42,288 nt of DNA, taken from positions 1 to 42,288 of the IMG/VR virus record IMGVR_UViG_2778260993_000007; one strand, written 5' to 3'. This document shows positions 5,570 through 39,605 of this stretch, one piece after another. This DNA is from a virus. Lineage: Duplodnaviria > Heunggongvirae > Uroviricota > Caudoviricetes. Numbering within the stretch: position 1 is the stretch's first letter; each line of letters begins with the position of its first letter. Under the pieces are notes generated by a model that saw only the letters and a list, made by a program, of their open reading frames with translations, was not told the DNA's origin and did not search any database. Position numbers and translations under genes: made by a program.

Positions 5570-6154
5570 TTATTGTTTGTTTTTTTCGTTCTGGTTGATG
5601 ACAAATTCAATGTAACTTTCGATCTTTGCCTTCTCTGTTTCAGGTAACAATGCGTAGCGCGAGCGGTCATAGTTGATAGTTGCAGGGTCATGCGGATGAA
5701 TCAGTAGTTCATATCCGTGACGCCCGAATGCAGATGCAACATTCTCCAGGGTGGAAATGGAAACGCTGACCTCATTGTTTAACAGGCGGCTTATTGTCAC
5801 CTGGGCGACGCCGGATGCGCGGTGAAGTTTTCCCTGAGTTGAAAGGTCGCGGCTTTCACTCATCCAGCGTTCCAGGTTGTGAGCTGCCAGCTGACCAATG
5901 TCGCTTGGTCCGACAGGCTGAAAACCTTCCTGAGAAAGCGAGCGATCGATATCAAGCCAGTTACGGGGTTTATTGGCGGCAGCTTCGATTTTTCGCGCAA
6001 CCTGGTCGCCGATAACCTTCTTGCCAAGAGCCCAGCGGTTTACCAGATTTGCCTGAGTTCCAAGTTTTTCTGCCATCCGCGTCTGAACACCATTGAATTC
6101 ACGGTCGATCAAGTCGTTGAGATTTTGCCTGCGGACGTCCTGGATACTTTTCAT
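5570..6154 (-). CDS. Prophage repressor (CI-like), tandem HTH, no S24 autopeptidase domain
   Basis: 194 aa; N-terminal XRE-type HTH (QTRMAEKLGTQANLVNRWALGKK) and a second HTH-like segment; divergent from Cro-like gene with operator repeats between; no Ala-Gly/Ser-Lys peptidase motifs seen. Confidence 0.7.
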   Translation of the reverse strand: MKSIQDVRRQNLNDLIDREFNGVQTRMAEKLGTQANLVNRWALGKKVIGDQVARKIEAAANKPRNWLDIDRSLSQEGFQPVGPSDIGQLAAHNLERWMSESRDLSTQGKLHRASGVAQVTISRLLNNEVSVSISTLENVASAFGRHGYELLIHPHDPATINYDRSRYALLPETEKAKIESYIEFVINQNEKNKQ

Positions 6155-6308: not shown

Positions 6309-6539
6309 ATGAGCGATAACGGACATTTCGATTTCAAAAAGCACTGGCTTGCACTTACTCCGGATGAGCGTGAAGCCTTCGCACAGGAAGCCGGAACGAC
6401 GAGTCACTATATCCAGACTCACTTAACAGGTAAGCGCAAAATGCCAGGTAAGGTATTGATGAATGGGCTTTTTAAAGCCTGTAAAACAAGACAATGGCTG
6501 CGCTCAAAAGCAGAACTGGCATACTTCTTCTACTCATGA
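6309..6539 (+). CDS. Cro/CII-like HTH regulator
   Basis: 76 aa; first gene of rightward operon; HTH-like segment (TTSHYIQTHLTGKRKMPGK) resembling lambda CII. Confidence 0.55.
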   Translation: MSDNGHFDFKKHWLALTPDEREAFAQEAGTTSHYIQTHLTGKRKMPGKVLMNGLFKACKTRQWLRSKAELAYFFYS

Positions 6540-6610: not shown

Positions 6611-6689
6611 AAAAAACCAAATCTGGTTGATCTTTTTTTTGTGTCAGCACAAAATAACCGTAATCCCAATACTAATAACAGGGCTTACC

Positions 6690-15767: not shown

Positions 15768-15844
15768 TGGCGTGGCATGCAGGATTCGAACCTGCGACCA
15801 ACCGCTTAGAAGGCGATTGCTCTGTCCAACTGAGCTAATGCCAC
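15768..15844 (-). tRNA. tRNA-Arg (anticodon UCU)
   Basis: 77-nt cloverleaf on minus strand: acceptor GTGGCAT/ATGCCAC, D-arm GCTC...GAGC, anticodon loop CTTCTAA, T-arm GCAGGTTCGAATCCTGC, 3' GCCA; resembles but is not identical to E. coli argU. Confidence 0.8.
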
Positions 15845-16180: not shown

Positions 16181-16270
16181 TAATTCGCGCGTTAAATGTC
16201 AACTGTCTACGATAAATAAATCATATGTGGTTAAATTGGTAATGATTTAATTGCGTACGGAGTCATTGAT

Positions 16271-30913: not shown

Positions 30914-31441
30914 TCAATGGCTGTTTATGGCTTCTAAAGAATCTTCTGCACTTATCGGCAAAGCAATAGCATCCTTGTTAGATGTGCTATTGCTTTCCAG
31001 AACGATGGAAATCCAATCCTCTTGGTTTTTATTAATTGTGCTGACAGCCATGATAGCATTCAAATCGTTTTTATATATTTCTGATCGAATAAGACCTTTC
31101 CTGAATAATTTAGTTAAGCTTTCCGCTATCGACATCGCACGAATGCTAACTTTACTAAGCTCAATGACGTCACTACCTGCGACTTTAGCGTGTTGAGAAA
31201 GAGCCATCAAAGCTATATGCGAAAATGTTTCTTCTTTTGAAAAACCATTACTTAAAGACAGGAGTGATACACTAGCTCCGTATGGGGTGAGCTTATATCC
31301 TGATACATTCAATGCATGCTCTACAAAGATAAGAGCATCAGTTGTAGAAGCATGGATATTGTTACTTTTTTGTTTTTTCGCAATAAATAAAAAAACAAAA
31401 TTAATAATTACGATGCCGACAATGATTAAGAAAACTTCCAT
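30914..31441 (-). CDS. Membrane-anchored hypothetical protein (accessory)
   Basis: 175 aa; N-terminal TM helix MEVFLIIVGIVIINFVFLFIA; AT-rich; promoter, operator and first codons duplicated in inverted orientation at 35151..35200. Confidence 0.6.
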   Translation of the reverse strand: MEVFLIIVGIVIINFVFLFIAKKQKSNNIHASTTDALIFVEHALNVSGYKLTPYGASVSLLSLSNGFSKEETFSHIALMALSQHAKVAGSDVIELSKVSIRAMSIAESLTKLFRKGLIRSEIYKNDLNAIMAVSTINKNQEDWISIVLESNSTSNKDAIALPISAEDSLEAINSH

Positions 31442-31481
31442 TGCTTTTCCTCACAATAACATTACCTTAAAGGTAATATTT
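31432..31481. repeat. Inverted repeat IR-1, left copy
   Basis: About 50 bp (operator, promoter, RBS, ATGGAAGTTTTCT) is the reverse complement of 35151..35200. Confidence 0.7.
31462..31476. promoter_or_regulatory. Operator-like site upstream of membrane protein gene 30914..31441
   Basis: TTACC-TTAAA-GGTAA; part of 50-bp inverted repeat shared with 35151..35200. Confidence 0.5.
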
Positions 31482-31501
31482 TGTGTTAATGTAATCAAGT
31501 G

Positions 31502-31900
31502 TTAAGTGTAAACCTCCTGCTGTTCAGTGGTGATTTTACCCGGCAACACCTTTTTAGCTTTGCGTGGGTTAACTACATGGCCTTTAGTCCAGTAATCGTA
31601 GAGCACATCGTCACACTCTTCCTGATACTGGATTACCTTGTCGCGGATTTCAGGGCGTACTTTGTTTGGACTGATGCTGTTCAACCAAGCTGCCAATTTT
31701 CGTAAAGCCATACAAATCATGGCTTGCACCCCACCGGCAGAAGGTATGGTGATTTCCACCATACCCTTCGAGAAGCGTTGAGAAATCTTCTTATGTTGAG
31801 ATTTCCAGTCTAGCCCCATTCCCTCAACGATAGGTTTCATTGGGGTATACGGTTCACCGTTGTGATTGACAACATAAAGATCTGCGCCGTGGAATGGCAC
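31502..31900 (-). CDS. Putative antirepressor-like protein (P22-antirepressor N-terminal-like domain)
   Basis: 132 aa; segment GEPYTPMKPIVEGMGLDWKSQ...GGVQAM resembles N-terminal domains of phage antirepressors; weak RBS, start uncertain. Confidence 0.45.
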   Translation of the reverse strand: MPFHGADLYVVNHNGEPYTPMKPIVEGMGLDWKSQHKKISQRFSKGMVEITIPSAGGVQAMICMALRKLAAWLNSISPNKVRPEIRDKVIQYQEECDDVLYDYWTKGHVVNPRKAKKVLPGKITTEQQEVYT

Positions 31901-31994
31901 GTTGATAATAGTGACAAATTTGAAACATCGCTGGTTGTAAGCCAGCAGATGCTCGTTATTTTACATCGCGGTACAATTTCTCGCTGGTGGCTCT

Positions 31995-32328
31995 TTTACA
32001 CACCTTAACCAAATACGGTTGATTTTAATATTTCTAAGCGCTTATCATTACCTTTTCGGTAAATTTACATCGCATTCCTCTTGTGCCATAGTAATCGGGC
32101 ACTGGCAAAATCCAGTGCCGGGATTGGTCTCCCGGATTACTACAGAGGCACATATGCCGCATAAGCGGTTTTTTTATGTGTAAAGCGCACCTATTCTATG
32201 GTGGGCTGTGTGGGGGCACCGAAAGGTGCGCCGGGTCCTTTGTAGCCGGTAAGACCAACTCTGCACAGTTCACCACCATCTGATTGGTCTCAGCGGTGGT
32301 GATTAACCTAACTACAAAGGTGATCGCC
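31995..32328. repeat. Inverted repeat IR-2, left copy (antirepressor leader)
   Basis: About 330 bp, roughly 85-90 percent identical to the reverse complement of 34790..35125. Confidence 0.65.
32048..32062. promoter_or_regulatory. Operator-like site in leader of BRO-type antirepressor gene
   Basis: TTACC-TTTTC-GGTAA adjacent to putative -35 TTTACA. Confidence 0.5.
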
Positions 32329-33021
32329 ATGAATACCAAACCTTCCATCTTTTCCTTTGAGTCATCCTGCCAGATCCGTATGTTCATGATTGACGGAGAA
32401 CCTTGGTTTGTCACCAAAGATGTGTGCAATGCTTTGAATATTGATGTTACACAAGCGAGAAAACTTGATAAAAAAGGCTGGAACAAAAAGGGGCTGTATT
32501 CAATACAGACCCCTGGTGGAATACAAGAACTATCCATCGTTTCAGAATCAGGTCTCTACATCCTTATTCTGCGTTGCAAAGAGGCAATGACTGAGGGAAC
32601 GAGAGCATTCAGATTTCTTGAATGGGTTACAGGTGAGGTTCTTCCTCAGATCCGCCGCACCGGAAGTTACATTAAAAACTCGCTCCCGCAGGAAGAACGC
32701 ATAAAGATGGTTGCCGACCAGGTAGCCAACGCCACGGCGTCAGCAGTAATGCAGGCGATGAAGATAGAGAACAAAACCTACAGCGCCCCGCTGAAGCCCG
32801 GCTACCGCAGTTTGATTCACTCGCCGTCTGGTGTTCTCGGCCTGACGGAGAACTCACTGCTGATGAATCTGCTGAACCAGTTACAGGAAGACGGGCACGA
32901 CGTATCGGGCGCGGCGGCGGAGCTGACCACCATGTTCTGCTACATCGTCGGTGTGAGCAAATGCCTGCGTGATATCCAGACGCACGCGGAGTACATCAAC
33001 GACAAGGCAGGGTTCTTCTGA
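32329..33021 (+). CDS. Antirepressor, BRO-N domain plus shared C-terminal domain
   Basis: Start refined to MNTKPSIF (AAGGTGA RBS); BRO-N-like N-terminus (FMIDGEPWFVTKDVCNALN...GEVLPQIRRTGSY); C-terminal about 80 aa identical to C-terminus of 34133..34789. Confidence 0.7.
   Translation: MNTKPSIFSFESSCQIRMFMIDGEPWFVTKDVCNALNIDVTQARKLDKKGWNKKGLYSIQTPGGIQELSIVSESGLYILILRCKEAMTEGTRAFRFLEWVTGEVLPQIRRTGSYIKNSLPQEERIKMVADQVANATASAVMQAMKIENKTYSAPLKPGYRSLIHSPSGVLGLTENSLLMNLLNQLQEDGHDVSGAAAELTTMFCYIVGVSKCLRDIQTHAEYINDKAGFF
32770..33021. repeat. Inverted repeat IR-3, left copy (shared antirepressor C-domain coding region)
   Basis: About 250 bp nearly identical to reverse complement of 34133..34385; the few differences seen are synonymous. 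Confidence 0.7.
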
Positions 33022-33059
33022 CAGAACGGCGGCACAGGGATGTGCAAAACGGAACTATC

Positions 33060-33071
33060 GTGACATGTCAC
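33060..33071. repeat. 12-bp perfect palindrome GTGACATGTCAC (copy 3 of 3)
   Basis: Exact 12-mer between BRO-type antirepressor stop and its terminator. Confidence 0.6.
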
Positions 33072-33096
33072 AGGCCGCTTTCGCGGCCTTGTTTTT
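33072..33096 (+). terminator. Terminator after BRO-type antirepressor gene
   Basis: AGGCCGC-TTTC-GCGGCCT followed by TGTTTTT. Confidence 0.65.
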
Positions 33097-33256
33097 AACG
33101 AATGCCACCGCCGCCCGGGCTGGAATCCGCAGAACGCCCACCGCAGCGGGAGCCGTCAGCGGCAGTATCGCTGTCGTGCTGACAACGACCGGCAAAGGCC
33201 TGAGTTGAAGCTACCAGAGACAACAAAACGAACAGTGCAGCAAATGCTTTTTTCAT
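33095..33256 (-). CDS. Possible small secreted peptide
   Basis: Signal-peptide-like N-terminus MKKAFAALFVLLSLVASTQAFA; but Gly/Ser-rich remainder overlaps a GC-rich terminator region; may be non-coding. Confidence 0.2.
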   Translation of the reverse strand: MKKAFAALFVLLSLVASTQAFAGRCQHDSDTAADGSRCGGRSADSSPGGGGIR

Positions 33257-33325
33257 TGTGAAATTTCCATCTATAAGCCACCTCAATGTGGCGTCAATGA
33301 GTGTAGTACTGACTTTTGTTTCGTC

Positions 33326-33351
33326 CACAAAAAAGCCCGCGCTGCGGGCTT
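33326..33351 (-). terminator. Terminator after gene 33355..33987
   Basis: Minus-strand AGCCCGC-AGC-GCGGGCT followed by TTTTTTG directly after stop codon. Confidence 0.7.
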
Positions 33352-33354
33352 CTG

Positions 33355-33987
33355 TTAATGCAGTTTATCTTTGCTTATAACCAGTAGTCTGTGGGTATGC
33401 ACATCTTTATCACTGCCCCAACAGAAATCAGCCCACTGGCTATAGAAATCATCCCATGATGTCATGAAGCTAAGAGGTCTATCTTCTTCAGAGCCATCTG
33501 AAACGTATACATTATATCCTGGGGTGTTTATAGCCCAAGAAATCATTCTTTCCCAGAATCTTCTCCCATCGATTGTTTGTTGCTCATCAGATACAACGAT
33601 CGCATATTGCTCTAGGAAGAACTGAAAAAAAATCTGAGGCAAACCATGAACAGCACGGTCATGAATAACATTAGGCGTACGCCATACCATGATCTGCGTA
33701 CATGTTCTTTTGGCTTCGACGATATCTTCCCGAAAGATTAACTTAACCGCATACACCGTTTCTGGAGTATCGCTGGTAGTAATCATTCTGTAATGATCGC
33801 CATTACAAGATTTTACAAGGCGATAACCATAAGGTGTTGTGAATCCCGGAAGAACGAAATCAACCACACCTTTCGCTAAGTAGCTTTCGGTGTGACTAGT
33901 GTTCTTCTCAGACATGTTCAGTTTTCTATCGAAATCTGCTTCTGGGATAATGTATGGCATCGCTTTTCTTGTTGTATTTGTTCTCAT
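33355..33987 (-). CDS. Hypothetical protein at centre of antirepressor island
   Basis: 210 aa; own operator-like site upstream (about 34047..34061) and strong terminator directly after stop; no recognised domain. Confidence 0.55.
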   Translation of the reverse strand: MRTNTTRKAMPYIIPEADFDRKLNMSEKNTSHTESYLAKGVVDFVLPGFTTPYGYRLVKSCNGDHYRMITTSDTPETVYAVKLIFREDIVEAKRTCTQIMVWRTPNVIHDRAVHGLPQIFFQFFLEQYAIVVSDEQQTIDGRRFWERMISWAINTPGYNVYVSDGSEEDRPLSFMTSWDDFYSQWADFCWGSDKDVHTHRLLVISKDKLH

Positions 33988-34046
33988 TTCGTCCTCCCAT
34001 GTTTGGCTACAGGACGCGTTTTGAAGGGAAGATTAAAAATGCTTTC

Positions 34047-34061
34047 TTACCCTTGAGGTAA
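34047..34061. promoter_or_regulatory. Operator-like site upstream of gene 33355..33987
   Basis: TTACC-CTTGA-GGTAA in the 145-bp gap between AntA-type gene stop and next start. Confidence 0.5.
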
Positions 34062-34132
34062 TAGTACGCTATTCACCCCCAGTCTGCAATCTGTACAGAA
34101 TTATTTAAAGGCACGTCCCTGTGCCGCCGCCG

Positions 34133-34385
34133 TCAGAAGAACCCTGCCTTGTCGTTGATGTATTCCGCGTGCGTCTGGATATCACGCAGGCATTTGCTCA
34201 CACCAACGATGTAGCAAAACATGGTTGTCAGCTCCGCCGCCGCGCCCGATACATCGTGCCCGTCTTCCTGCAACTGGTTCAGCAAATTCATCAGCAGTGA
34301 GTTCTCCGTCAGGCCGAGAACACCAGACGGCGAATGAATCAGGCTACGGTAGCCGGGCTTCAGTGGGGCGCTGTATTCTTTTTTG
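34133..34385. repeat. Inverted repeat IR-3, right copy
   Basis: See left copy. Confidence 0.7.
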
Positions 34386-34789
34386 TCTTCCAGCTTGATC
34401 GCCTCCATAATGGCGGGCATGAAGCCTGACAAGACCTTCTCCACTTTTGTTTCTTGTTGTCTTAAACGTTTCTCGCATTCAATGAAGTAGCGTCGCACCT
34501 GGCGACCTTTTTCGTTACGCTCGACCATCGCCAGCTCTTTGGCTGTATCAAGGGTGAGGTGGTACTCTTTGCGGTTGTGGCCGCCTCTACCAGATGTTTG
34601 CTTTCCCAAATTGGAAAGCAAAATATAGTCTTGATTTTCAATGAATTCGTATTCTGATATGCGATTTGTAATCCATGCTGCAAACACCTTTTTAACACCT
34701 AAAAAAGCGTGCAGATCGCGGGCATTACAAAGTAGGGCTGTTTCGTTAGATATAGTGCCGTTGAATACGGGGATGAGTTGAGCGTTCAT
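34133..34789 (-). CDS. Antirepressor, AntA/AntB-type N-terminal domain plus shared C-terminal domain
   Basis: 218 aa; AntA-like N-terminus ([34 protein letters not shown]); C-terminal domain identical in protein sequence to that of 32329..33021. Confidence 0.7.
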
Positions 34790-35125
34790 GATGGCGTCTC
34801 CACTTAGCGAATTACATCACCACCGCTGAGACCAATCAGATGGTGGTGAACTGAACGGAGTTGGTCTTACCGGCCTAAGTGGTACCGGCGTCCTTTCGGA
34901 CCCCCATTCAGCCCACCATAATTCTGGCATGACTGTGCTATACGCATAAAAAAACCACGTCTGGCGTGGTATGCGCCACTTAGTAATCCGGGAGACCAAT
35001 CCCGGCACTGGATTTTGCCAGTGCCCGATTACTATGGCACAAGAGGAGTGCAATGTAAATTTACCGCAAAGGTAATGATAAACGCGAAGAAATATTAAAA
35101 TCAACCGTATTTGGTTGATTGCGTT
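34790..35125. repeat. Inverted repeat IR-2, right copy (antirepressor leader)
   Basis: See left copy; ends at the AntA-type gene start codon. Confidence 0.65.
35061..35075. promoter_or_regulatory. Operator-like site in leader of AntA-type antirepressor gene
   Basis: TTACC-GCAAA-GGTAA; inverted counterpart of the site at 32048. Confidence 0.5.
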
Positions 35126-35150
35126 TAACGCTTGATCACCTGAAAGCAAG

Positions 35151-35200
35151 ATATTACCTTTAAGGTAATGTTATTGTGAGGAAAAGCAATGGAAGTTTTC
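35151..35200. repeat. Inverted repeat IR-1, right copy
   Basis: Reverse complement of 31432..31481 by direct comparison. Confidence 0.7.
35154..35168. promoter_or_regulatory. Operator-like site upstream of membrane/zinc-ribbon gene 35189
   Basis: TTACC-TTTAA-GGTAA, 21 bp before start codon. Confidence 0.5.
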
Positions 35201-35917
35201 TGGATAGTTGTTGGTGTGGTTGCGGTGATTATTTACGTTATCAACCAGAACAAGACTAAGATCTCTGATCGTACGGTCGTTAATTATAACAAAACGATAA
35301 AGACCGAAGATGGGGAGATAACGATTAATCGTACACAGGTGATAGAACACACCTCTACTCAGTTTCAAAAAACTGGAGGTAATGCGCCTAATATTTCCGC
35401 ACCTCCTGCTTATGATAGTGCGGTAATCCAGACATATTATAAACAGCAGGAGTTAGCAAAAGAGAGGCAACTGATTCAGCCAAAGCCGTTTACAGCTGAG
35501 CTTCCACCTGGAGTGTCAATGCGTCCGGCATATCATGGAAGATTCCCTGGTGATGACATATCGTCTCAGTCATCTAAAAAAGCACCTCAGGCAGTATCAG
35601 AGCCAGCAAGAATACCTTCTGTATCGCCGCCAAAAGAAGAATCAGCTAACAGAGTTTCAAGTGGTAGCAAGCAGTGCTTGCGATGCAGAATAAACCTACC
35701 ATATGAAAAATTCAGGAAATCGTCAAAAAATCCAGATGGATTGACTAAGTGGTGTGCAAGGTGTCTCGATGGCCCAAAGAATACACGCCATATGAAGTGG
35801 TGCCCAATTTGTAATGTCCGCAGAAAACGAACAAGCTTTTACCCTAATAATCAAAATGCGGATGGCTTAATGGCATGGTGCAAAACGTGCTGGGACGAGC
35901 ACAAAGCGAAACGATAG
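35189..35917 (+). CDS. Membrane-anchored protein with tandem C-terminal zinc-ribbon repeats
   Basis: 242 aa; N-terminal TM helix MEVFWIVVGVVAVIIYVI; two about 35-aa repeats each with CxxC...DGL..WCxxC. Confidence 0.6.
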   Translation: MEVFWIVVGVVAVIIYVINQNKTKISDRTVVNYNKTIKTEDGEITINRTQVIEHTSTQFQKTGGNAPNISAPPAYDSAVIQTYYKQQELAKERQLIQPKPFTAELPPGVSMRPAYHGRFPGDDISSQSSKKAPQAVSEPARIPSVSPPKEESANRVSSGSKQCLRCRINLPYEKFRKSSKNPDGLTKWCARCLDGPKNTRHMKWCPICNVRRKRTSFYPNNQNADGLMAWCKTCWDEHKAKR

Positions 35918-36288: not shown

Positions 36289-36392
36289 TATCTGTTCGTA
36301 TTTATGGGTTGTCTATCCATATATGGTTTTTCAGGTAATAGAATAACCGGATATGCGGCGCAACGGGTGCTGCGACTATCTGGAGATTTAAC

Positions 36393-39082: not shown

Positions 39083-39097
39083 TTACCGTTAGGGTAA
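39083..39097. promoter_or_regulatory. Operator-like site upstream of lysis cassette
   Basis: TTACC-GTTAG-GGTAA followed by repeated element GTTTTTTTATGTGTAAAG also found in the antirepressor leaders. Confidence 0.5.
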
Positions 39098-39200
39098 ATG
39101 AAATCGTTTTTTTATGTGTAAAGTTTATCATATATGGTTTACTGTGTATGATATACCCATTTAACTAAGGGCGTATCATGAACATTAAGCGGCGGTTACA

Positions 39201-39605
39201 ATGTCTACTGCTCTAACAAGCGAATCATTAAATCAGTGGCTTAGTATGGGATCTCTTGCTGCGGTGATAGCAGGAGCTCCTCCAGAGGTAGCTTTGGGAT
39301 CTTTGGCTGGTGCGGTAATTTTTGTTACCTCTGCGGTAGAGTATCCAATACGTCGTCGTGTTCTTCTATCGATGCTCAGCTTCCTCTGCGGCCTTCTCTT
39401 CTACAAACCAGTAGCATCAATTCTTATAGGCATAGCTAGCCTGATCCCTACCATCACCCAGGACTCTTTCGAGAAAGGGGTTGTTTTCTCTGCTGGCGCA
39501 TTCGTGTCAGCAATCGTCGCAGTACGAATTGGCATCTGGCTCTATCACCGTTCCGATAATCCACGTGAGTTAATTCCGGGGAGAAAAGACGATGGCAACG
39601 TATGA
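39201..39605 (+). CDS. Holin-like membrane protein
   Basis: 134 aa with multiple hydrophobic helices and charged C-terminus; first gene of lysis cassette. Confidence 0.5.
   Translation: MSTALTSESLNQWLSMGSLAAVIAGAPPEVALGSLAGAVIFVTSAVEYPIRRRVLLSMLSFLCGLLFYKPVASILIGIASLIPTITQDSFEKGVVFSAGAFVSAIVAVRIGIWLYHRSDNPRELIPGRKDDGNV

Follow-up and report, generated by a model that had tools for sequence, protein, structure and literature searches.

What do the structured leaders of the two antirepressor genes on this phage genome encode, and how might they bear on the genes behind them? The window, the whole stretch of viral DNA analyzed here (42,288 nucleotides), carries the left gene at 32329..33021 (+ strand, 230 aa), with a Bro-N N-terminal domain and a PHROG assignment as anti-repressor Ant, and the right gene at 34133..34789 (− strand, start codon 34789-34787, 218 aa), with an AntA/AntB N-terminal domain. 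The C-terminal ~70 aa are identical between the two proteins, and the leaders are 86% identical to each other over ~380 columns. In the related phage TL-2011b, an Arc-Ant module occupies the left position. An earlier note, made from the sequence alone, ended the left leader at 32328, and the ant start codon indeed lies at 32329; it read both leaders as functional RNA, for example a cis-regulatory leader or attenuator. All of the leader elements it listed are present where it placed them or close by, and chance accounts for none of them.

Both leaders match the IsrK and C4 RNA families

A scan of the whole window with Rfam models at their gathering thresholds (isrK, 50 bits; C4, 45 bits; c4-a1b1, 46.7 bits) revealed full-length matches in both leaders. 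The isrK model (RF01394) matches at 32099-32175 on the + strand (74.7 bits) and at 35024-34948 on the − strand (67.7 bits), in each case over model positions 1-77 of 77, and the C4 model (RF01695) matches at 32194-32280 + (74.0 bits) and 34923-34839 − (61.2 bits), each over positions 1-87 of 87. Both leaders have the isrK layout, in which a pair of 5′ hairpins is joined by a linker to an intrinsic terminator, and a separate terminator scan independently found the IsrK terminators of both copies. The c4-a1b1 model (RF03163) scores 39.9 bits at 32086-32138 and at 35037-34985, below its threshold (P1, 51.0 bits; Gifsy-1, 48.1 bits); the isrK match spans this DNA too, and the two Rfam entries describe one and the same element. 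No match to sar RNA came out of the whole-window scan.

Judged by sequence and model matches, both leaders are copies of a catalogued phage RNA switch, an IsrK element followed by a C4 antisense RNA. The same switch is found in phages P1/P7 and in Salmonella Gifsy-1, and its target is antirepressor translation. The leaders are therefore of a known, ordinary kind, and the phage has two versions whose target specificities differ. The expectation of a functional RNA holds up, but an undescribed cis leader or classical attenuator does not, as the leaders match RF01394 and RF01695. In annotation they should carry isrK and C4 RNA gene labels with their target sites, not a label of unexplained structure, and both ant genes should be regarded as post-transcriptionally gated.

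DNA sites at the promoters

Two palindromes that had been counted among the parts of the RNA leader belong instead with the DNA-level sites. TTACC-N5-GGTAA occurs as 13 perfect sites in the window (0.01 expected), and in both leaders it directly abuts a −35 TTTACA, as the earlier note had described. On the left, this operator-like palindrome (TTACCTTTTCGGTAA, 32048..32062, + strand) precedes a predicted sigma-70 promoter, TTTACA-17-CATAGT with a TG-extended −10 (32064..32092, −35 at 32064-32069); on the right (− strand), it lies at 35061-35075 beside the promoter TTTACA-17-CATAGT at 35059-35031 (−35 at 35054-35059). We infer a left transcription start at ~32099 because position 1 of the isrK model is the Gifsy-1 TSS. 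The centre of the left palindrome is ~44 bp upstream of this start, a position analogous to Oc4/Op51 of P1. We read TTACC-N5-GGTAA, from its sequence and placement, as a dispersed operator at the DNA level and not as part of the RNA; a helix-turn-helix repressor gene at 5570-6154 is a candidate partner of the 15-bp palindrome.

The palindrome TCAACC-N6-GGTTGA has two matches against 0.14 expected, with one mismatch allowed in the left copy. It is perfect at 35101..35118 (− strand), and the left copy is TTAACC-N6-GGTTGA (core AACC-N6-GGTT, one mismatch, 32005..32022, + strand). The left copy also reaches into a second predicted promoter, TTGATT-18-TATCAT (32019-32048, + strand), where it overlaps the −35 TTGATT. 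The palindrome is probably a second protein-binding site on the DNA and likewise not part of the RNA.

Structure and covariation of the leader RNAs

The long hairpin described in both leaders corresponds to hairpins 1 and 2 of IsrK, with arms GCACUGG/CCAGUGC and CGGGA/UCCCG at 32099-32134 and 34989-35024. In the left copy, hairpin 1 (32099-32118) is followed by hairpin 2 (32119-32134) with site a1, UUGGUCU (32124-32130), in its loop, then by site b1, CUACAGAGG (32140-32148), and by the intrinsic terminator (32156-32175). The right IsrK element (35024-34948, − strand) has a1 at 34993-34999, b1, CUAAGUGG, at 34976-34983 and its terminator at 34948-34970.

C4 lies at 32194..32280 on the left and 34839..34923 (− strand) on the right. 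Its predicted mature forms, by alignment to P1 c4, are 78 nt (32200-32277) and 76 nt (34917-34842) long and start with a 5′ GGU at 32200 and 34917. The GAAA hairpin with compensatory stem changes proved real and is C4 hairpin 1 (GCACC-GAAA-GGUGC, 32216-32229, on the left; GUCC-GAAA-GGAC, 34890-34901, on the right). Site b′ sits in the loop of hairpin 2 (left hairpin 32230-32250, b′ at 32237-32245; right b′ at 34875-34882) and site a′, AGACCAA, in the junction (32252-32258; 34861-34867). The stem-loop TCACCACC...GGTGGTGA, correctly described as identical between the leaders, lies at 32270-32302 and 34817-34849; in the RNA (UCACCACC...GGUGGUGA) it displays target site a2, UUGGUCU, in its loop (32284-32290; 34829-34835). 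The a2 stem-loop takes its 5′ arm from the 3′ end of the C4 closing stem, so the two structures are mutually exclusive. Site b2 overlaps the Shine-Dalgarno sequence of both ant genes: on the left, b2, CUACAAAGG (32312-32320), runs into AAGGUGA (32317-32323) within 32312..32331, and on the right, b2, CUAAGUGG (34800-34807), runs into GGAGA (34797-34801) within 34797..34807.

Folded at full length and compared with shuffled sequence, the left and right leaders each give z = −5.6, and with full-length isrK and C4 matches their pairings are conserved and covary in 98 homologues, which bears out a functional covarying RNA over neutral spacer. The minimum-free-energy fold of the predicted mature C4 is that of the Rfam model, a long closing stem around two hairpins with b′ and a′ unpaired. 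The C4 helices are 97-100% paired in the 98 homologues: the closing stem is 99.9% paired with 8 of 17 pairs covarying, and hairpin 1, though 96.6% paired, has 4 of 5 pairs changed on both sides. IsrK hairpin 1 is 94.5% paired (7/7 covarying). Across the same homologues, a′:a2 is 92.5% paired and a1:a′ 91.9% paired (4/7 covarying in each), against ~40% for slid controls. The key pairings are not the local hairpins stressed before but the long-range or intermolecular contacts of C4 a′ and b′ with a2, b2, a1 and b1.

One further helix encloses the IsrK terminator. The left arms are CACAUA (32149-32154) and UAUGUG (32175-32180), spanning 32149..32180, and the right arms CGCAUA (34970-34975) and UAUGCG (34943-34948, − strand) are compensatory to them. 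This helix is absent from the Rfam models and can form only in read-through transcripts. Its control is non-discriminating because G-U pairs are allowed and many arms are alike; covariation support for the helix, which we grade as moderate, comes from the many different arm pairs that compensate each other. The helix accounts for the element GTTTTTTTATG(T/C)GTA, found at 32168, 34941 (− strand) and 39106, as the IsrK terminator together with the 3′ arm of the helix. The third copy of this T-run element, said to lie at about 39104, is an exact 18-mer at 39106-39123. The GTTTTTTTATGTGTAAAG copy was rejected as a third module, since its homology ends after 18 nt and no RNA family matches it.

These structures also bear on another alternative, a plain cis-acting leader or attenuator working without a trans RNA, or else an orf45-like gene for a small leader peptide, which we regard as very improbable. 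An intrinsic terminator does lie inside the leader and an AUG opens the C4 sequence, but the leaders contain no alternative antiterminator hairpin competing with the terminator, and reading from the C4 AUG meets a stop after 15 codons in the left copy and after 3 in the right. The Gifsy-1 paper notes that the nucleotide sequence, and not the amino-acid sequence, is conserved (PMC4825925), and what is conserved is a tRNA-like fold together with exposed antisense sites.

Complementarity between C4 and its targets

Pairing at the b sites was assessed by an alignment-free test for exact complements. This test is the valid one: in the MAFFT alignment the variable b′ loops and the b sites are out of register, and column counts for b′:b2 and b1:b′ reach only 50-63%. 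RNAcofold of C4 with target or IsrK segments returned ~0 kcal/mol of binding and is uninformative because it cannot represent loop-loop contacts; duplexfold with flanks was dominated by GC-rich stem sequences, and exact complement lengths were used instead.

Among 106 distinct homologous modules, with 37 b′ variants and at least 6 a′ variants, cognate exact complements of at least 7 nt were found for a2 in 105, for a1 in 104, for b2 in 93 and for b1 in 71, while non-cognate controls gave 0.6% for a2 and 3.8% for b2. In almost every module b2 ends in GGAG or AAGG a few bases before the ATG.

In the window, C4 a′ and b′ are complementary to the mRNA from the same promoter, with b2 at the ribosome-binding site, and to the upstream a1 and b1. 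This three-way complementarity is observed directly, as are family membership, architecture and the covariation of structure. The two copies have a′ in common and differ in b′ (CCUUUGUAG on the left, CCACUUAG on the right), and the upstream b1 and the Shine-Dalgarno-overlapping b2 change in step with b′. The a′:a2 pairing comprises 7 bp and cognate b′:b2 9 bp on the left and 8 bp on the right, against 3-5 bp for non-cognate b′:b2; left b1 has one G-U pair with b′. A search for extra C4 targets found no paired a-type and b-type sites in the window outside the leaders.

Near-identical prophages occur in E. coli strains. Paired modules with unlike target specificity are seen in phages of this type as well as in many E. 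coli prophages, and in 6/6 two-module loci the copies differ in a′, b′ or both. A scan of genome contigs gave mostly chance matches; 16 true modules were left after filtering, from Kluyvera, Brenneria, Izhakiella, Buttiauxella, Sodalis, Pseudomonas and others. P1 and P7 differ by 2 nt in a and by 2 nt in b, and each difference is matched in all three sites of its set. We considered and rejected the view that they differ only in b′, since the alignment shows that a differs too. Because P1 and P7 differ in both, a b difference alone has no direct precedent as an insulator. The literature describes a′ as the C4 specificity site; as a′ is common to both window copies, cross-talk between them may occur.

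A probable P1/P7-type control module and its alternatives

Each leader is probably a P1/P7-type immI RNA control module for its antirepressor gene. For the processing of C4, the direction of regulation and the competing role of IsrK, we follow the homologues. Transcription would begin at ~32099 on the left and ~35024 on the right, at a promoter that would have an operator for the main phage repressor beside it. The first 77 nt would form IsrK, with its two hairpins, a1, b1 and intrinsic terminator, and many transcripts would stop there to give a short RNA. Read-through transcripts would carry C4 in a tRNA-like fold with its long closing stem, and C4 would be excised as its homologue P1 c4 is, RNase P making the cut at the 5′ GGU. 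In mature C4, b′ would then be exposed on the hairpin-2 loop and a′ in the single-stranded junction, and these would pair with b2 and with a2, in its hairpin loop, on the ant mRNA. As b2 overlaps the Shine-Dalgarno sequence, ribosome binding would be blocked and antirepressor synthesis kept off. IsrK, which has the same targets in a1 and b1, would compete for C4 in cis as part of the precursor or in trans as the short RNA, and would relieve repression when the promoter fires strongly. Since the b′/b1/b2 sets differ and a′ is common, each C4 would be matched to the ribosome-binding site of its own gene. Occlusion of the ant ribosome-binding site by processed C4, with IsrK competing for C4, is in our view the most likely course.

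Several findings in related phages bear on this mechanism. PMC5320573, citing Citron & Schuster 1990 and Hartmann 1995, describes processing of C4 by RNase P at a GGW motif and occlusion of the ribosome-binding site by b′, and full repression of P1 ant needs C4 (PMC8198154). In Gifsy-1, anrP translation increases ~140-fold when IsrK is supplied in trans, an effect that depends on pairing at G28/G31 (PMC4825925); we map these bases to a1 and their partners C162/C159 to a′. IsrK and STnc1160 are highly expressed in Gifsy-1 lysogens (PMC7067206), and STnc1160 lies downstream of IsrK in the region of the Gifsy-1 C4 match. Overexpression of the Bro-N antirepressor of a related Uetakevirus lowers lysogeny (PMC9782041). 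Two Gifsy-1 results are not predicted by a simple model in which C4 represses and IsrK acts as a sponge: constitutive orf45/STnc1160, the C4 equivalent, had no effect against IsrK toxicity, the growth arrest being stronger, and basal anrP translation went up when a1 carried the cis mutation G28A (PMC4825925).

A cis switch of the Gifsy-1 type, which we consider unlikely here, would make the unprocessed read-through mRNA the regulatory unit. A helix between IsrK (a1-CCGG-b1) and the C4 region (b′-CCGG-a′) would lock the mRNA in a translationally inactive state, short IsrK would open it in trans by strand displacement, and C4 would be no independent trans repressor. This long-range helix is part of the minimum-free-energy fold of both full-length leaders, whose z-scores are given above; in Gifsy-1 the helix and its opening by IsrK are backed by mutagenesis, native gels and 30S binding, and overexpressed STnc1160 was no antagonist of IsrK (PMC4825925). 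However, the window folds leave the ant Shine-Dalgarno sequence and b2 essentially unpaired, so that the helix alone would not silence ant, and the mechanism in Gifsy-1 relies on coupling between orf45 and anrP translation, while the window has no ORF like orf45. The cis switch would also leave unexplained both the covariation of a2 and b2 with a′ and b′ (105/106 and 93/106 modules) and the conserved covariation of the C4 hairpins and closing stem, none of which can form alongside the long-range helix. As the window has neither the icd of P1 nor an intact orf45, the coupling mechanisms of those systems are not transferable to it.

Somewhat less probable again is an immunity of the P4 CI or N15 CA type, in which C4 would act on nascent a1/b1 to enforce the IsrK terminator; pairing at a2/b2 might add downstream polarity, and control would lie mainly in termination and not in ribosome binding. 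The position of b1 immediately 5′ of the terminator hairpin and the covariation of a1 and b1 with C4 are consistent with it, the Gifsy-1 authors drew the analogy, and read-through rose ~8-fold with IsrK in trans (PMC4825925). Against this, b2 lies over the Shine-Dalgarno sequence in almost every module, a signature of P1-like translational control, and the translational effect in Gifsy-1 (140-fold) far exceeds the transcriptional one (8-fold) (PMC4825925). Enforced termination is in any case not exclusive of the P1/P7-type module that we favor.

We suggest, tentatively, that the two modules are functionally insulated RNA switches and that IsrK is a general anti-C4 competitor of all such modules. 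If so, the same promoter, operator and a site with different b sites would gate two antirepressors separately, with a common C-terminal domain and N-terminal Bro-N versus AntA. The Salmonella IsrK and P1 c4 stories would then be one mechanism, the Gifsy-1 "orf45" would be a C4 RNA and not a gene, and the circuit would answer promoter bursts through a short-lived IsrK set against a stable C4.

Comparison with known systems

The immI of P1 and P7, with c4, a1/b1, a2/b2 and the icd-ant operon, was reportedly described by Citron and Schuster in 1990. As annotated in the P1 GenBank record (NC_005856), immI has the order operator, a1, b1, c4, a2, b2, gene, collinear with the layout of the window leaders. 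Common to both are a two-hairpin a1/b1 element, a terminator-like hairpin and a C4 whose hairpin-2 loop holds b′ and whose junction holds a′; in both, b2 covers a ribosome-binding site and an antirepressor gene lies downstream. P1 and the Gifsy-1 isrK locus show isrK, C4 and c4-a1b1 matches in the same order as the window; the C4 model gives 68.8 bits in P1 and 74 and 61 bits in the window, and the 5′ GGU of mature C4 is common to both. P1 has icd between c4 and ant, whereas in the window the ant ATG directly follows b2 (32329, 34789) and, unlike in P1, b2 lies on the antirepressor's own Shine-Dalgarno sequence. The window a2 sits in a hairpin with the C4 3′ end as its 5′ arm, a hairpin that P1 lacks, and the operator is the TTACC-N5-GGTAA palindrome where P1 has an asymmetric C1 site. 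The phage analyzed here is an epsilon15/phiV10-type podovirus with two modules in its genome, P1 being a plasmid prophage, and its antirepressors, of the Bro-N and AntA types, are unlike that of P1.

The processed P4 CI and N15 CA RNAs pair with seqA/seqC and cause premature termination. Compared by description (general background and the discussion in PMC4825925), they are processed, tRNA-like antisense RNAs from the same transcript as their targets, which lie upstream and downstream as in the window; they act on termination of replication or lytic operons, whereas the downstream site in the window overlaps the antirepressor ribosome-binding site. The P22 immI (mnt-arc-ant, sar) likewise has post-transcriptional antisense control of an antirepressor, but sar is made from the other strand and runs over the ant ribosome-binding site. 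The ORFs neighboring the window leaders contain no Arc or Mnt domains.

The Gifsy-1 isrK-orf45-anrP operon (Hershko-Shalev et al. 2016, PMC4825925) has isrK and C4 matches in the same order with an antirepressor downstream, an IsrK terminator with partial read-through, and a long-range IsrK:C4 helix in which G28-C162 and G31-C159 are a1:a′ pairs. There the C4 region is read as a 45-codon ORF to an ATGA, translationally coupled to anrP, whereas the window frame has 15 or 3 codons and no orf45 stop overlaps an antirepressor start. The Gifsy-1 promoter lacks the TTACC-N5-GGTAA operator that the window promoters have, and its a′/b′ (ACGCCAA / CGGUGAU) differ from those of the window. Hfq binding by IsrK and trans-activation of the downstream antirepressor are known only for Gifsy-1 (PMC4825925). 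Our additions are modest, namely a single phage with two specificities, one more covarying helix and the recognition of the Gifsy-1 "orf45" as C4 RNA, and they leave the classification as a known system unchanged. Reading orf45/STnc1160 as C4 RNA and the compensatory pairs as a1:a′ joins two literatures that stand as separate entries in the reviews consulted.

RNA modules in the antirepressor leaders

The window phage, a temperate epsilon15/phiV10-type podovirus, has its best DNA matches in TL-2011b, phiv142-3 and phiV10. At 31995-35120, two divergently placed leaders, 86% identical by pairwise alignment, drive two convergent genes of PHROG antirepressor families, the left with a Bro-N domain (32329-33021, +) and the right with an AntA domain (34789-34133, −). 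The C-terminal ~70 aa of the two proteins are identical and the N-terminal domains are unrelated.

An Rfam scan of the window at curated thresholds revealed isrK followed by C4 antisense RNA in each leader, in the same order and at full model length (isrK, 32099-32175 (+), 74.7 bits, and 35024-34948 (−), 67.7 bits; C4, 32194-32280 (+), 74.0 bits, and 34923-34839 (−), 61.2 bits). The window contains two P1-type modules, a known and curated kind of system. Where isrK matches, the c4-a1b1 model reaches 39.9 bits, short of its 46.7 cut-off. In the P1 locus (48217-48422), the a1/b1 region is matched by c4-a1b1 and, below threshold, by isrK. In the Salmonella prophage Gifsy-1 (NC_010392, 34131-34329, −), the source of the characterised IsrK, the models isrK, c4-a1b1 and C4 all exceed their thresholds and precede anrP in this arrangement. 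As the isrK and c4-a1b1 matches coincide in P1, Gifsy-1 and the window, they are one element described twice, and the shared matches and order identify IsrK as the a1/b1 element plus a terminator. Of the two models, c4-a1b1 belongs to Rfam clan CL00128 and isrK to none.

Each element listed for these leaders in the earlier note is present and far commoner than in shuffled sequence, and the predicted fold of either complete leader has z = −5.6 relative to shuffled sequence. What had been described as a long hairpin corresponds to IsrK hairpins 1 and 2, found consecutively in each leader; the T-run with a T/C difference between copies is the IsrK intrinsic terminator, independently recovered by a terminator scan; the GAAA hairpin, with its compensating stem changes, is hairpin 1 of C4; and the TCACCACC...GGTGGTGA stem-loop, identical in both leaders, has a 5′ arm that doubles as the 3′ strand in the closing stem of C4. 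The reported third T-run copy exists as an exact 18-mer (GTTTTTTTATGTGTAAAG) common to the left leader (32168-32185), at 39106-39123 rather than about 39104. It lies 9 bp past an operator site (39083-39097) and ~80 bp ahead of the holin gene at 39201, and its surroundings have no homology beyond the 18-mer and no RNA-family match.

In P1 nomenclature, the a sites are common to both copies: a1 (UUGGUCU; left 32124-32130, in the loop of IsrK hairpin 2; right 34993-34999), a′ (AGACCAA; left 32252-32258, in a single-stranded junction; right 34861-34867) and a2 (UUGGUCU; left 32284-32290, in the loop of the downstream hairpin; right 34829-34835). The b sites differ. In the left copy, b1 is CUACAGAGG (32140-32148, with one G-U pair against b′), b′ is CCUUUGUAG (32237-32245, the loop of C4 hairpin 2) and b2 is CUACAAAGG (32312-32320), which overlaps the Shine-Dalgarno sequence AAGGUGA ahead of the start codon at 32329. 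The right copy has CUAAGUGG at b1 (34976-34983), CCACUUAG at b′ (34875-34882) and CUAAGUGG again at b2 (34800-34807), overlapping GGAGA ahead of the start codon at 34789. Cognate b′:b2 pairing spans 9 bp in the left copy and 8 bp in the right, versus 3-5 bp for non-cognate combinations; cross-talk between the copies is possible because a′ is common to both. A search for extra C4 targets found a-type and b-type targets combined nowhere else in the window.

Complementarity and covariation

We assembled 106 distinct modules from two viral-contig pattern scans and one bacterial-genome scan, plus P1, P7 and Gifsy-1; among them the b′ loop takes 37 forms and the a′ heptamer at least 6. An exact complement of at least 7 nt to the module's own C4 is present at a2 in 105/106 modules (non-cognate control, 0.6%), at b2 in 93/106 (control, 3.8%), at a1 in 104/106 and at b1 in 71/106; the remaining b1 sites often pair via G-U, as in the left copy. 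P1 and P7 have two-base differences in both a and b, matched at a1/a′/a2 and b1/b′/b2.

In a 98-sequence alignment, the C4 closing stem is 99.9% paired (both sides changed in 8/17 pairs), C4 hairpin 1 96.6% (4/5 pairs), C4 hairpin 2 98.8%, IsrK hairpin 1 94.5% (7/7 pairs), IsrK hairpin 2 98%, a′:a2 92.5% (4/7 pairs) and a1:a′ 91.9% (4/7 pairs), against ~40% for slid controls in the same alignment. The downstream stem-loop is 93.5% paired and almost invariant, so it is conserved but not proven by covariation.

In the left read-through RNA, CACAUA (32149-32154) pairs with UAUGUG (32175-32180), enclosing the terminator hairpin and U-tract. The right-copy arms are CGCAUA/UAUGCG, which explains the T/C difference. 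This helix lies outside the Rfam models, and homologues carry many differing compensating arm pairs, such as CGGACA/UGUCCG in P1; it is moderately supported, as its control was weak.

Operator sites and locus architecture

The TTACC-N5-GGTAA site beside TTTACA was confirmed in the leaders, and 13 perfect copies are spread across the whole genome (5436, 5498, 6210, 8517, 8579, 13007, 16166, 31462, 32048, 34047, 35061, 35154 and 39083; 0.01 expected), or 18 with at most one mismatch (additionally 6258, 6595, 13025, 36274 and 39325; 0.68 expected). Two fall in the interval separating an HTH repressor-like gene (5570-6154, −) from a Cro-like gene (6309-6539, +). The main repressor probably uses these scattered sites as its operators, arranged as in P1, and the leader site occupies the position of Oc4 in P1. 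Its centre precedes the inferred start of the TTTACA-17-CATAGT promoter by ~44 bp, and it also spans the −10/start region of a second predicted promoter, TTGATT-18-TATCAT.

The TCAACC/GGTTGA-type palindrome, also present in both leaders, overlaps the −35 of this second promoter. Its core AACC-N6-GGTT (AACCAnATAnGGTT) gives 10 strand hits in the window versus 0.39 expected (32007-32020, 35103-35116, 6615-6628, 16219-16232 and 36315-36328) and, in 29 related loci with differing flanks, keeps a constant distance to the operator downstream of it. It is most likely a protein-binding site, and a candidate target of a second regulator.

The cassette at 31416-35214 is built of nested inverted repeats (31416-31505/35125-35214, 87%; 32007-32142/34981-35116, 96%; 32229-32303/34816-34890, 87%; 32766-33022/34132-34388, 93%), with two cargo genes without assigned function between the antirepressor genes (33095-33328 and 33355-33987, both −). 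A 132-aa ORF (31502-31900, −) has P22_AR_N (E = 1e-44), the N-terminal domain of P22-type antirepressors, as its sole domain. It diverges from the left leader and is apparently a third antirepressor gene that has been truncated. TL-2011b (NC_019445, 2046-3230) has a P22-like Arc repressor and Ant gene at the left position instead of an IsrK/C4 leader, so different antirepressor control modules are exchanged at this locus. The phage genome also encodes a tRNA-Arg (anticodon TCT, 15768-15844, −).

Proposed mechanism

In P1, RNase P cuts the operon transcript at the 5′ GGW of c4, the b′ loop occludes the ribosome-binding site (PMC5320573), and full ant repression requires c4 (PMC8198154). In Gifsy-1, the IsrK terminator is leaky, and short IsrK in trans raises anrP translation ~140-fold, dependent on G28 and G31 pairing (PMC4825925). 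Mapped onto the Gifsy-1 sequence, both compensatory pairs of that study, G28-C162 and G31-C159, join a1 to a′.

Processed C4 would close the ant ribosome-binding site through a′:a2 and b′:b2, while IsrK would limit read-through by attenuation and compete for C4 through a1/b1. For the window, we infer that C4 is processed, that regulation runs in this direction and that IsrK acts as a competitor. Mature C4 alone is predicted to fold as in the Rfam model, leaving a′ and b′ unpaired, and in the whole-leader minimum-free-energy fold a1-CCGG-b1 pairs in cis with b′-CCGG-a′. Against this simple model, STnc1160 overexpression failed to counter IsrK in Gifsy-1 and the cis G28A mutation raised basal translation (PMC4825925). 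Two features of the window also count against it: a′ is common to both copies, and the window lacks both icd and an intact orf45, unlike P1 (icd) and Gifsy-1 (orf45).

Distribution and comparison with known systems

Both leaders, with a variable middle section between them, occur in many E. coli prophages, and part of the region matches 857/5426 complete genomes. True modules extend beyond E. coli to Kluyvera, Brenneria, Sodalis and Pseudomonas. In all six two-module loci, the window included, a′, b′ or both distinguish one copy from the other; this small sample is compatible with selection against two copies of the same specificity. A Bro-N antirepressor lowers lysogeny in a related Uetakevirus, in a paper silent on RNA control (PMC9782041).

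The P1 immI order in GenBank is a C1 operator over the −35, a1 and b1, the 77-nt c4 RNA, a2 and b2, icd and ant, with b2 at the icd ribosome-binding site. In Gifsy-1, the orf45 start A107 coincides with the AUG in UAUGGUGGG, a conserved sequence at the 5′ end of C4, and STnc1160, a processed ~80-nt RNA highly expressed in lysogens together with IsrK (PMC7067206), lies downstream of IsrK where the C4 match falls; both orf45 and STnc1160 therefore very probably correspond to C4 RNA. P1 c4 goes unmentioned in the IsrK paper (PMC4825925), and recent reviews give IsrK and c4 as separate entries (PMC12197685, PMC7380047). Our additions to these systems are small: we equate IsrK/orf45 with a1b1/C4, describe one more helix and report paired modules that differ in b specificity.
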